From a virus, in UHGV virus genome UHGV-0072940: 16,360 nt of DNA; one strand, given 5' to 3'. Made by a program: the position numbers and the translations under genes. Below, in pieces: positions 3,536-6,488 of the stretch; the stretch's first letter is position 1; every line of letters starts with the position of its first letter. The notes under the pieces are model-generated. The model worked only from the letters and a program-made list of their open reading frames with translations. It searched no databases and had not been told where the DNA came from.

Positions 3536-3777
3536 TTTGTGATTTCATCAAGCGCATACTTAAAAGCCCTGCTAATCGGACTGATGTCTGATGCCATTCC
3601 GAAAGCACACAGGACCGAAGCAATAAACCGCCAGTCCGTTCTGCTTATCTTCGATTCATGACAGCCAATCATCTTTGCCAGACCGCGCTGGGTAAGCGTT
3701 GACAGGTTGATGAGTAAATCAGTTTCAGCGCGATCAATTTCTCGCTGTGATAGTTTGCTGTAACTTGTTTGTTCCAT
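3481..3777 (-). CDS. cII: CII-like transcriptional activator
   Basis: 98 aa. The C-terminal KKKSPVAAGDSKQIDMQF resembles lambda CII KKRPAATERSEQIQMEF, there is a central HTH-like segment, and the gene sits between cro and O. Divergent from lambda CII overall. Confidence 0.7.
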   Translation of the reverse strand: MEQTSYSKLSQREIDRAETDLLINLSTLTQRGLAKMIGCHESKISRTDWRFIASVLCAFGMASDISPISRAFKYALDEITKKKSPVAAGDSKQIDMQF

Positions 3778-3790
3778 TTCTTAAGATTTC
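3755..3790 (+). promoter_or_regulatory. putative CII-dependent establishment promoter (pRE-like)
   Basis: TTGC-N6-TTGT direct repeat at 3755..3768 inside the first codons of cII on the opposite strand, with a weak -10 candidate TAAGAT at 3782..3787. The orientation would send transcripts antisense through cro into cI. Confidence 0.4.
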
Positions 3791-3862
3791 CAATAGTGAA
3801 TAGTTAGTTGAAAGGTATGCGTGGAAACGCATGTGGCCTTAGTTGGTCAGATATATTGGGAC

Positions 3863-3908
3863 TCGCTTTGTCAGCGACGTAGGACGAATGTCCATTGTGA
3901 AAAGAGCG
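3863..3908 (-). promoter_or_regulatory. nutR: boxA, spacer hairpin, boxB
   Basis: Minus-strand reading: boxA CGCTCTTTT (3908..3900) 8 nt past the cro stop; a spacer containing a GGAC/GTCC hairpin (3882..3893); CTACG; then boxB UCGCUGACAAAGCGA (3877..3863), a 5-bp stem with a GACAA pentaloop. Confidence 0.6.
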
Positions 3909-3915
3909 GTGTTAC

Positions 3916-4143
3916 TTATGCAGCCAGAAGGTTCTTTTTGCTTATTTCAAGCATTTCGCTTGCTTGATATTTGCCACCAGAAATCTCTTCGATTTTTGAT
4001 GCGTATTTAGTTTTCCCAAAAAACTCAGTCTTAGGGAGGAAGCCGTTTTTGAGCCACTTATAGACAGCCCTTTCGCTAACTCCACAAGCCTTCGCAACTT
4101 CAGGGATGCCGACACCTTTAATCGGCTCATCAAGATTTTGCAT
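3916..4143 (-). CDS. cro: Cro-like repressor (HTH)
   Basis: 75-aa product with HTH segment GIPEVAKACGVSERAVYKWLKNG. First gene of the PR operon, divergent from cI. AAGGA RBS upstream of ATG 4143..4141. Confidence 0.75.
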   Translation of the reverse strand: MQNLDEPIKGVGIPEVAKACGVSERAVYKWLKNGFLPKTEFFGKTKYASKIEEISGGKYQASEMLEISKKNLLAA

Positions 4144-4221
4144 AGGAATATCCTTTTTCGTACTTTCAGTACGTATTATGGTTGAACTGAAAGTTTTTGC
4201 AAGTGCTTTAGTATCGTACTC
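4144..4221. promoter_or_regulatory. OR operator region with divergent PR (minus) and PRM (plus)
   Basis: PR on the minus strand: -35 TTGCAA (4197..4202), 16-bp spacer, -10 CATAAT (4175..4180). Dyad sites: CGTACTTTCAGTACG (4159..4173) and GAACTGAAAGTTT (4184..4196), centres 24 bp apart; a third dyad AGTATCGTACT (4210..4220) overlaps a PRM -10 candidate TAGTAT (4208..4213). The cI ATG at 4222 is about 8 nt from that -10, so the cI mRNA is probably leaderless. Confidence 0.6.
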
Positions 4222-4929
4222 ATGGTTCAGAATGAAAAAGTGCGCAAAGAATTCGCCCAGCGGCTAGCGCAAGCCTGTAAAGAAGCTGGTCTTGATGAAC
4301 ATGGTAGGGGAATGGCTATAGCCCGTGCCCTTTCTCTTTCGTCCAAAGGCGTTAGCAAATGGTTTAATGCTGAGTCTTTACCGCGTCAGGAAAAAATGAA
4401 TGCGCTTGCGAAATTTCTAAACGTTGATGTTGTTTGGCTTCAGCACGGCACTTCGTTAAATGGAGCGAATGATGAAGATACTCTTTCATTTGTTGGCAAA
4501 TTAAAAAAAGGGTTAGTGCGCGTGGTTGGTGAGGCAATTCTTGGTGTTGATGGTGCCATCGAGATGACCGAAGAGCGCGATGGGTGGCTCAAAATTTATA
4601 GCGATGATCCAGATGCCTTTGGTCTTCGTGTGAAAGGAGACAGCATGTGGCCCAGAATAAAATCAGGAGAATATGTACTCATTGAGCCTAACACCAAAGT
4701 ATTCCCGGGTGATGAGGTGTTTGTCAGAACCGTTGAAGGACACAACATGATTAAGGTTCTTGGCTATGACAGAGATGGAGAATACCAATTTACAAGCATT
4801 AACCAGGATCACAGGCCTATAACGTTGCCTTATCATCAAGTAGCAAAGGTGGAGTATGTAGCTGGTATTCTGAAGCAATCTCGCCATCTGGATGACATCG
4901 AGGCAAGGGAGTGGCTGAAAAGTTCGTGA
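4222..4929 (+). CDS. cI: CI-type prophage repressor (N-terminal HTH, C-terminal S24/LexA-like peptidase domain)
   Basis: 235 aa. N-terminal HTH region, C-terminal GDSMWP serine motif with a downstream Lys (NMIKVLGYD). Divergent from cro across an operator region. Not lambda immunity by sequence. Confidence 0.85.
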   Translation: MVQNEKVRKEFAQRLAQACKEAGLDEHGRGMAIARALSLSSKGVSKWFNAESLPRQEKMNALAKFLNVDVVWLQHGTSLNGANDEDTLSFVGKLKKGLVRVVGEAILGVDGAIEMTEERDGWLKIYSDDPDAFGLRVKGDSMWPRIKSGEYVLIEPNTKVFPGDEVFVRTVEGHNMIKVLGYDRDGEYQFTSINQDHRPITLPYHQVAKVEYVAGILKQSRHLDDIEAREWLKSS

Positions 4930-4989
4930 CTTCATCGTCACATAGCTGGTAACCAGTGGCCAGAAGAAACGTTTGGGTGAGGAGGATAG

Positions 4990-5331
4990 ATGGCGTTCAC
5001 TGACCTTGAATATCAAGCGGTCAAAAAAGAAGTTCACCAATTCATTGAAAGCATAAGGCCGCCTGAACATATCCGCAATGAACTGGATATTGTTTATAGC
5101 ATCAATGACCAAACGATAGATATCGGCGAACAGCGCCCCGTGTGGCAGGGCAACCCAGGTGAAACAAACATCCTGCCATCAGCAAGAATCAAGTACATAC
5201 GTTCTCTGGATAGATGGAAAATCTATTGGATGCGGAAGGATATGAAATGGCATCAGTACAGTACTGAACTTTCGCTGACTGATGCGCTTGAGCTTGTGCG
5301 TGCTGACCCGGATTGCTGCTTCTTCGGATGA
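4990..5331 (+). CDS. hypothetical protein A (113 aa), first gene of the cI-linked operon
   Basis: Strong RBS GAGGAGG 5 nt upstream of ATG 4990. No terminator between the cI stop (4929) and this gene. No recognisable motif. Confidence 0.6.
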   Translation: MAFTDLEYQAVKKEVHQFIESIRPPEHIRNELDIVYSINDQTIDIGEQRPVWQGNPGETNILPSARIKYIRSLDRWKIYWMRKDMKWHQYSTELSLTDALELVRADPDCCFFG

Positions 5332-5401
5332 GTGAAGAGACGTTTGGATGATGGATGGTCGCAGAGATGCTCGTAGAGCATACAGCGATGCAGGAGAATT
5401 T

Positions 5402-5836
5402 ATGGCACTTAATTTAGAAAGAATATCTTTTATAACCCCATTTGATAGCAGCGAAGAACCCAACCAACCGACGCTTAATTTTACATGCAATGAATTTCCT
5501 GCGCGGCTATCAATTGATTTCAGGGTTGGTATGATCGGGTTGAAACCAAATTCAAGATATAATTTGGGTATTATGGTAATCCCCGCGCACCTAATTATAA
5601 AAAAAGGTGAGGAAATTCAATTCCCTGACGGCTCTTCGGAATCAGTTTCACTTTTCATCGATACGAAAGATAGCCATTTTGAAACAGGGGTTGGCGGACA
5701 GGTAATAGTAACATTGAAAGAAATTAGGGTCCCAGCTAAAGGGCTGTATAGTGTTATAGGGATATTGCAAGATAATGAAGACCCTAAAAATGAACTTCAT
5801 AAAAATGAATCATTTTTCACCGTAGAGCTATTATGA
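5402..5836 (+). CDS. hypothetical protein B (144 aa), second gene of the cI-linked operon
   Basis: Start placed at the internal ATG 5402 preceded by AGGAG (six-frame ORF begins at 5348). AT-rich coding sequence. Stop overlaps the next start (ATGA at 5833..5836). Confidence 0.55.
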   Translation: MALNLERISFITPFDSSEEPNQPTLNFTCNEFPARLSIDFRVGMIGLKPNSRYNLGIMVIPAHLIIKKGEEIQFPDGSSESVSLFIDTKDSHFETGVGGQVIVTLKEIRVPAKGLYSVIGILQDNEDPKNELHKNESFFTVELL

Positions 5837-6453
5837 GTGACGACAGTAATTTAAATAATCATGGAAAGCAAGACACCAACATATCTGAAAGCCGGAGGTT
5901 GAAGGTTGTTGGCGGTTCTGATTTTGAGGCTGAATTTGATAATTCTCCCACCAAGGTGCAAAATAATTACATAAAACCGCCACAAACGGAGGAAGAAGTG
6001 GGAACGATCAGCAGAGAGGAACTTGATGCTCGCTTAGCTGCTAATAAAGCAGAGATGGAGTCTATTGCTTCCTCCATTAGGGCTGACATGGCTCTATCTC
6101 GTGAAAGCGTTAATGTCCAATTTGCATCACTTAATGCAGCCATAAGCTCTCTATCGTCCAAGATCGATGGAAAGATGGATAGCGCTGCTGGCGATATAAA
6201 AGCAATTAATGGGAGATTCGAAGGAATTCAAGGACAAATAACAGGGGTTAATACCGCAATTAGTGGTGTTCAGTCGGGTATTTCTATACGATTAGCCATT
6301 TTTAGTGTCATTATCGCTGTAATAGTTGCGATTCCCGGGCTGGTATCAGCTTTAAAGTCAGACCACGCACCTTTGCAACAGCCTTCCACTTTGCAAGCGC
6401 CGCCACAAAATACCCAGCCAACAGACAACAAAAAAATCACTCCCCAGCATTAA
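5833..6453 (+). CDS. hypothetical membrane-anchored protein C (206 aa), third gene of the cI-linked operon
   Basis: Translationally coupled to B. Polar N-terminus, long Ala/Ser/Ile-rich helical segment, one hydrophobic span LAIFSVIIAVIVAIPGLVSAL near the C-terminus, then a Pro/Gln-rich tail. Confidence 0.6.
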   Translation: MSDDSNLNNHGKQDTNISESRRLKVVGGSDFEAEFDNSPTKVQNNYIKPPQTEEEVGTISREELDARLAANKAEMESIASSIRADMALSRESVNVQFASLNAAISSLSSKIDGKMDSAAGDIKAINGRFEGIQGQITGVNTAISGVQSGISIRLAIFSVIIAVIVAIPGLVSALKSDHAPLQQPSTLQAPPQNTQPTDNKKITPQH

Positions 6454-6460
6454 CGCATTA

Positions 6461-6488
6461 ACCCGGCTTCCGCGCCGGGTTTTCTTTG
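6461..6488 (+). terminator. rho-independent terminator closing the cI operon
   Basis: Stem CCCGGC (6463..6468) / GCCGGG (6474..6479), 5-nt loop, then TTTTCTTTG, immediately after the stop of gene C. Confidence 0.65.

Follow-up and report, generated by a model that had tools for sequence, protein, structure and literature searches.

Known operators and a probably leaderless cI mRNA in a 933W-like lambdoid immunity region

Background

The operators of the Shiga toxin phage 933W, OR1-3 and OL1-2, were characterised by the Koudelka and Friedman laboratories after the annotation of 1999. They are reportedly also described by Koudelka et al. in 2004, by Tyler et al. in 2004 and by Bullwinkle and Koudelka in 2011. 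The 933W repressor has five natural sites, each 15 bp long and rotationally symmetric, and there is no OL3 (Bullwinkle et al. 2012, PMC3317979). Positions 2-5 of the half-site are conserved, positions 4 and 5 being invariant; position 2 is G-C in all half-sites except one of OR2, and at position 6 seven of the 10 half-sites have T, the other 3 having C (PMC3317979). Binding is non-cooperative and the affinity falls in the order OR1 > OR2 > OR3, as reported for a sequence identical to the one analysed here. The relative dissociation constants in the intact 933W OR are 1 : 13.6 : 26.4 (PMC5977221), OR1 being the natural site of highest affinity (PMC3317979; PMC5977221 Table 1).

A second described system of this kind is phage HK022, whose immunity region was treated by Carlson and Little in 1993, as cited in the text of PMC8053113. 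A review from the Koudelka laboratory has already noted that the 933W and HK022 repressors have related DNA-binding domains. The two domains are 49% identical over 80 aa, and the recognition-helix residues K42, S45, K46 and W47 are conserved in both.

The locus and its identity with 933W

The window, meaning the whole stretch of 16,360 bp that was analysed, contains a classic lambdoid immunity region, reversed with respect to the lambda map; the minus strand carries O, P and cII. In a megablast search, window positions 3900-4950 shared 99.9% identity with Stx phage 933W as well as with dozens of Stx1 and Stx2 converting phages. Compared with 933W base by base, the 1051 bp of this segment have a single mismatch, which is at 3904 and not in OR; the OL sites and the nucleotide sequence of the cI gene are also the same as in 933W. 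The features oR1, oR2, oR3, pR (4175-4202) and pM (4187-4214) of the 1999 record of 933W, AF125520, map exactly onto window bases. The OL1 and OL2 features in the immunity-region record of phi24B, EF517298, likewise coincide with the OL sites of the window. The window thus very probably comes from a lambdoid Shiga-toxin prophage of the 933W type and carries its immunity switch, and this assessment extends to the full explanation, with the PRM and leaderless cI mRNA discussed below. The operator system is already known, and the window adds no new site or motif to it.

The cro gene (3916-4143, minus strand) is transcribed from PR and codes for a 75-aa helix-turn-helix protein with 46% identity to HK022 Cro. 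A gap of 78 bp separates it from cI (4222-4929, plus strand), whose 235-aa product has HTH_3 and Peptidase_S24 domains. The cI protein shows 100% identity with the phi24B repressor and with cI in six further Stx or E. coli phage records among the matches listed. Three small genes follow 3' of cI, then a terminator, then N (6950-7333), which was identified by a Pfam N_peptide match. The terminator, tM (6460-6481, plus strand), is an intrinsic one found by a terminator scan; it lies upstream of OL, closes the cI operon and is also annotated in 933W at the equivalent relative position.

In OR, OL, the five sites, the promoters and the repressor sequence the window and 933W are all alike, and the switch itself shows no differences. 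The only difference is in the cargo between cI and tM, where two genes of the HK542/HK244 type replace L0083, stk and L0081. These two ORFs, of 162 and 206 aa (PHROG 5893 and 5820), occupy 5348-6453, between cI/DUF3024 and tM. This segment shares 98% identity with the HK542 and HK244 immunity regions; in 933W the same slot holds L0083, stk and L0081. Among phage records no contiguous counterpart of window 4930-6660 was found. The segment 5348-6453 is a mosaic swap at the slot that is occupied by rexAB in lambda. The gene directly 3' of cI (4990-5331) is a DUF3024 gene that corresponds to L0084 of 933W and matches the PADLOC candidate defence family PDC-S43 (E = 7e-42).

On the other side of the switch, an element at 3755-3768 (plus strand), inside the 5' end of cII and pointing towards cI, has the form TTGC-N6-TTGT and resembles the lambda CII box at PRE. 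An equivalent of this CII-box-like element is annotated in HK022.

The operator dyads

The initial annotation had called two operator regions from four GTAC/GAAC dyads, two at OR and two at OL, each pair with its centres 24 bp apart. Checked on the sequence, all four dyads lie where they had been placed and both pairs, OR1/OR2 and OL1/OL2, have the 24-bp centre-to-centre spacing. OR1 (4159-4173) is the 15-bp site CGTACTTTCAGTACG, centred at 4166 with perfect 6-bp arms; it is oR1 in AF125520 and is also annotated in phi24B. It begins 1 nt 3' of the PR -10 and lies over the predicted PR start. OR2 (4183-4197), known from AF125520 as well as from the sequence, is the 15-bp site TGAACTGAAAGTTTT, in which one half-site is degenerate (AAAAC). 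Its 13-bp core GAACTGAAAGTTT (4184-4196, centre 4190) has one mismatch to the strict form.

At OL, the promoter-proximal site is OL1 (6682-6696; 15 bp, CGAACTATTGGTTCA), annotated as OL1 in EF517298 and the same in 933W. Its 13-bp core is GAACTATTGGTTC (6683-6695, centre 6689); OL1 lies within the PL spacer and overlaps the PL -10. OL2 (6658-6672; 15 bp, CGTACCAATAGTTCT), which is OL2 in EF517298, is 24 bp from OL1; its 13-bp core is GTACCAATAGTTC (6659-6671, centre 6665) and the site adjoins the PL -35.

The list of two OR sites was correct but it overlooked a third. OR3 (4215-4229; 15 bp, CGTACTCATGGTTCA) is centred at 4222 and is supported both by oR3 in AF125520 and by the sequence. The A of the cI start codon supplies its central base pair. 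The experimentally defined size of the sites is 15 bp rather than the 13 bp first given; the 13-bp core is nevertheless a fair description because position 1 adds less than 2-fold to affinity (PMC3317979). Of the ten half-sites of the window, 9 have G at position 2, all 10 have A and C at positions 4 and 5, and at position 6 there are 7 with T and 3 with C. These counts agree with every statement of PMC3317979 on the natural 933W sites.

The strict palindrome GWAC-N5-GTWC has four matches in the 16,360 bp, starting at 4160, 4216, 6659 and 6683. All of them are in OR or OL, and the dyads of the two regions cross-validate the operator call. The expected number is 0.50, and none of 200 dinucleotide shuffles reached four. 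When one mismatch is allowed, two pairs of dyads stand exactly 24 bp apart in the window; in first-order Markov simulations the mean number of such pairs was 0.012, and none of 1000 simulations had at least two. The dyads are confirmed as real, far above chance. The degenerate search that had been proposed with them, G(T/A)AC-N5-G(T/A)(A/T)C, fails when run as written: it misses OR2, one of the sites from which it was drawn up, since OR2 ends in GTTT. Moreover it finds 6 loci in the window where about 4 are expected (1/8192 per position per strand), which is near chance.

No third OL dyad was found at up to one mismatch, consistent with the reported absence of OL3 (PMC3317979). At the same threshold there is no dyad between centres 2719 and 4166, the region searched for an HK022-like distal operator, and none between centres 6025 and 6665.

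For comparison, one genome per species was scanned with an alignment of the DNA-binding domain, which gave 38 loci. After one duplicate was dropped, the OR comparison set consisted of 38 regions, namely the window and 37 distinct related loci. The genera in the scan include Escherichia, Pectobacterium, Xenorhabdus, Arsenophonus, Proteus, Providencia, Enterobacter, Klebsiella, Pantoea, Haemophilus and others. Two of the loci come from short contigs of non-enteric assemblies. Over the OR stretch that was examined, L034 (Xanthomonas pisi, contig of 452 bp) is a match to the window; the OR of L037 (Streptomyces sp., contig of 1026 bp) is HK022-like. These coliphage-type OR regions are probable assembly contamination.

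The chance that the dyads are mere accidental palindromes or terminator hairpins, bound by no protein, is negligible. This reading draws on the terminator scan, which marks 4159-4173 as a stem-loop with T residues after it. The OR1 stem, though, is only 6 bp long and lies between divergent promoters. The four strict matches against 0.5 expected all fall in two divergent-promoter regions, and two 24-bp pairs are present against 0.012. In Enterobacterales and Pasteurellaceae the position and half-site of the dyads are conserved while the dyad centres vary, and binding of the repressor to the dyads has been published (PMC3317979). Published footprints likewise speak against repressor contacts on sequences other than the five sites. 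As a terminator, the OR1 palindrome was rejected.

Promoters and the proposed switch

The overlap of the OR dyads with PR, claimed at the outset, was corroborated by a promoter scan. It places PR at 4175-4202 on the minus strand, with the -35 TTGCAA at 4202-4197, a 16-bp spacer and the -10 CATAAT at 4180-4175, as for pR in AF125520. The TTGnnn -35 and the -10 of PR are conserved in relatives. The same scan found PL at 6672-6700 on the plus strand, directed towards N, with the -35 TTGATA (6672-6677), a 17-bp spacer and the -10 CATTAT (6695-6700). PRM, annotated as pM in AF125520, spans 4187-4214 on the plus strand and has a -35-like CTGAAA (4187-4192), a 16-bp spacer and a -10-like TAGTAT (4209-4214). 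It is a weak promoter that did not reach the cut-off of the promoter scan, which counts against the explanation favoured here. OR2 fills the PR spacer, and the centre of OR2, CTGAAA, is the -35-like hexamer of PRM. Each predicted start is also within 2 nt of an operator centre (4166 or 4222), the PR -10 adjoining OR1 and the PRM -10 adjoining OR3.

A different PRM, using the palindromic TTGCAA at 4197-4202 as its -35, was considered and rejected. Its -10 candidates, TCATGG and CATGGT, are poor, and so are the equivalents in HK022.

In the proposed switch, a dimer of the cI repressor would bind through its helix-turn-helix N-terminal domain to the five 15-bp two-fold symmetric sites, with the half-site (C/T)G(T/A)AC and with the specificity residing in half-site positions 2-5. 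Occupation of OR1 and OR2 would turn off cro and lytic transcription. Binding at OR3, centred on the initial A of the cI start codon, would turn off PRM when repressor is abundant. OL1 and OL2 would block PL, there being no OL3. PRM would consist of the weak -35 CTGAAA within OR2 and the -10 TAGTAT adjoining OR3. It would start at the A of the ATG or no more than 1 nt away, and translation of cI in the lysogen would be from a leaderless mRNA, as in lambda. The repressor-binding steps are those in the literature on the identical 933W sequence; the make-up and start of PRM we infer here.

The start of the cI mRNA

The PRM -10 had been placed about 8 nt from the cI ATG, with a leaderless transcript as the consequence. 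The hexamer is indeed close to the ATG, but the distance is 7 nt, between TAGTAT at 4209-4214 and the ATG at 4222. Since 7 nt remain before A4222 and the base at -1 is C, A4222 is the expected start of PRM. Upstream of the cI ATG no Shine-Dalgarno sequence (GGAG, GAGG, AGGA, AAGG or GGTG) was found within -20 to -4. A leaderless cI mRNA is therefore plausible, its 5' end being an assignment from the promoter layout, and the claim gains support from the relatives.

In 29 of the 38 OR regions, including the window, dyads are located at -56/-57, -32/-33 and 0, counted from the A of the ATG. The hexamer TAnnnT stands exactly 7 nt 5' of the ATG in 26 of these 29 ATG-centred regions and at 6-8 nt in 28. 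It occurs as TAGTAT, TAATAT, TATCAT, TATTAT, TATGAT, TATAGT and TATAAT. Such drift of the inner bases, with A2 and T6 kept, is characteristic of a functional -10. A Shine-Dalgarno sequence occurs in just one of the 29 regions, L021, which has no hexamer. In the other nine OR regions, eight from Pasteurellaceae and one from Pantoea, the third dyad lies 19-32 nt 5' of the ATG, and all nine carry AAGG or AGGA at -10 to -12. By eye, the Haemophilus-type regions L026-L029 and L031 have TATAAT followed directly by TGAACCG or TGAACCA, so that the hexamer adjoins the dyad.

This split of the Shine-Dalgarno sequences would put the start of transcription at the centre of the third dyad, and hence supports a leaderless cI where the ATG sits there, although the 38 OR regions are phylogenetically related and the split may represent three independent events, not 38. 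A related design is found in PaaR2 of the cryptic prophage CP-933P, a cI-like regulator in an O157 prophage which is another protein with other operators. By 5'-RACE, its PRM-type transcript starts at the start codon (PMC8630535). The leaderless design thus recurs among O157 prophages, with direct evidence for the PaaR2 locus only. In HK022, the supplement of the loopometer paper (PMC8053113) labels "PM-10" in the 21 nt upstream of the cI ATG. According to the text of Colon et al. 2016 (PMC4848623), its Fig. 6b shows the 933W PRM start, citing Koudelka 2004. No measured 5' end of the 933W PRM transcript and no statement that it is leaderless were found in the literature text, a search whose scope excluded the primary 933W papers and the figures. 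From the conserved arrangement of hexamer, dyad and start codon, the cI mRNA of the 933W type is likely to be leaderless, with the predicted PRM start at the ATG.

It is improbable that the operators are right but the PRM mRNA has a conventional leader, or starts inside the ORF and is translated from a later codon such as GTG 4240. A source of this reading is the record AP004402, which puts a putative maintenance promoter within the ORF (window 4228-4256) and would require a start such as GTG 4240. The 17-bp "operators" of that record, however, lack dyad symmetry and do not fit the characterised sites. A good -10-like TATTAT is present on the plus strand at 4174-4179, but OR1 would lie in the spacer of such a promoter and the repressor would silence it. 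With +1 at 4222, OR2 falls at -32, which is awkward for an activator. It can also be argued that the conserved N-terminal MVQ comes from the OR3 half-site TGGTTCA rather than from the protein. It tells against the whole reading that those relatives in which cI has a true leader also have a Shine-Dalgarno sequence, and that alignment of their proteins begins at residue 1. No Shine-Dalgarno sequence precedes either ATG 4222 or GTG 4240, and the TAnnnT kept at 7 nt in 26 of 29 OR regions, with its inner bases drifting, speaks for the start at 4222.

The annotation of AP004402 (Stx2 phage I; positions 3777-3859 of locus L003, equal to window 4176-4258), with 17-bp operators and PRM in the cI ORF, was itself rejected because it has neither dyad symmetry nor conservation and does not match the published sites. 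The AP004402 sequence matches 933W there, yet its annotation conflicts with the 933W record. The conflicting operator annotation should not be trusted.

OR2 and the activation of PRM

With the probable start at A4222, the centre of OR2 (4190) is at -32, OR3 is at +1, and the -35-like hexamer is inside OR2. Conservation was scored on 27 non-redundant relatives. OR1 and OR2 are 24 bp apart in 26 of these, and OR2 and OR3 are 32 or 33 bp apart in all 27; pairs of dyads spaced by 24 bp also recur downstream of cI in relatives. Across the 27, TGAnA at the OR2 centre hardly varies (1.8, 2.0, 2.0, 0.6 and 2.0 bits), and the centre of OR1 is variable (1.8, 1.1, 0.8, 0.1 and 1.2 bits). Published binding data for 933W show no more than weak preferences at the central operator positions (PMC3317979). 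Conservation of the OR2 centre beyond the preference in binding fits a second role as the -35 of PRM (cTGAnA, compared with TTGACA).

The lambda type of activation geometry, with OR2 near -42 and adjacent to the -35, was looked for and not found. Because OR2 is on top of the -35, stimulation of PRM is not explained by the lambda model. In lambda, CII at PRE is an activator bound on the helix face opposite sigma region 4. It may be suggested, as a rather doubtful possibility, that in the 933W/HK022 family the activating dimer sits over the PRM -35 (at -32/-33) with OR3 on +1, and that activation would occur either from the opposite face or by relief of competition with PR. If true, either reading departs from the lambda/434/P22 paradigm; an explicit prior statement of it was not found in the literature text.

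In a stricter version there would be no lambda-like contact at all. Filling of OR1 would clear RNA polymerase from PR and so free PRM, and OR2 and OR3 would both repress PRM. This version is quite unlikely. It has in its favour that the promoters overlap, the PR and PRM starts being only about 55 bp apart, that the PR -35 (4197-4202) lies between the PRM -35 and -10, and that all 27 relatives have the OR2 centre at -32 or -33. Furthermore, the binding of the 933W repressor is non-cooperative and OR1 is bound 13.6-fold more tightly than OR2, so there would be an intermediate window of concentration. Published work, on the other hand, has the repressor activating PRM and ascribes partial repression to OR3 (PMC3317979, PMC5977221, PMC4848623). 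The HK022 repressor binds adjacent OR sites cooperatively, so that OR1 and OR2 would there fill together. Finally, the invariant CTGAnA is equally compatible with sigma region 4 on the opposite face.

Comparison with HK022 and lambda

The dyad class of the window is also that of HK022 (X16093), which has 15-bp sites such as TGAACTTATGGTTCA, GGAACTGATAGTACA, TGTACTATTGGTACT and TGAACTTTAAGTACA. HK022 has two annotated OL sites 24 bp apart and three OR sites, with spacings of 24 and 33 bp. Its OR3 is centred on the cI ATG and its -10 hexamer, TATAGT, is 7 nt upstream, both as in the window; the OR2-OR3 distance is 33 bp compared with 32 in the window. The window thus has the architecture of the HK022 class, with dyads at about -56, -32 and 0 from the ATG and a 24-bp OL pair. 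The C-terminal domains of the HK022 and window repressors, in contrast, are unrelated beyond the S24 fold. HK022 repressor binds cooperatively, and HK022 has two extra sites, an OL3 and, about 300 bp beyond OR, a further operator, neither of which has a counterpart in the window. Four HK022-like loci, L040, L041, L043 and L044, have an extra dyad at about -324 from the cI ATG, about 270 bp beyond OR1, which corresponds to the distal operator of HK022.

The motif had been presented as newly defined by the window and distinct from those of lambda, 434 and P22. The distinction from the consensus sequences of those operators stands. The novelty does not, since the sites of 933W and HK022 were already annotated and, with the dyad class described for both phages, the motif is not new.

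Lambda shares with the window the divergent PR and PRM, the three operators and the 24 bp between OR1 and OR2, as well as a -10 at 6-7 nt from the ATG and the lack of a Shine-Dalgarno sequence (PMC3342100, PMC8630535). The half-site is another one, and the lambda sites are 17 bp long as against 15 bp in the window. Lambda OR2 is at -42 and OR3 at -19, compared with -32 and +1 in the window. There are three OL sites in lambda and two in the window, and for 933W no cooperativity has been reported.

Significance

The comparison of relatives supports a leaderless cI: a Shine-Dalgarno sequence is present where the start codon has left the operator centre. The layout of OR is conserved from Escherichia to Haemophilus, across the 38 OR regions. 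The 933W switch governs the release of Shiga toxin 2, and its operators, whose biochemistry was published between 2004 and 2012, are thereby of medical relevance.
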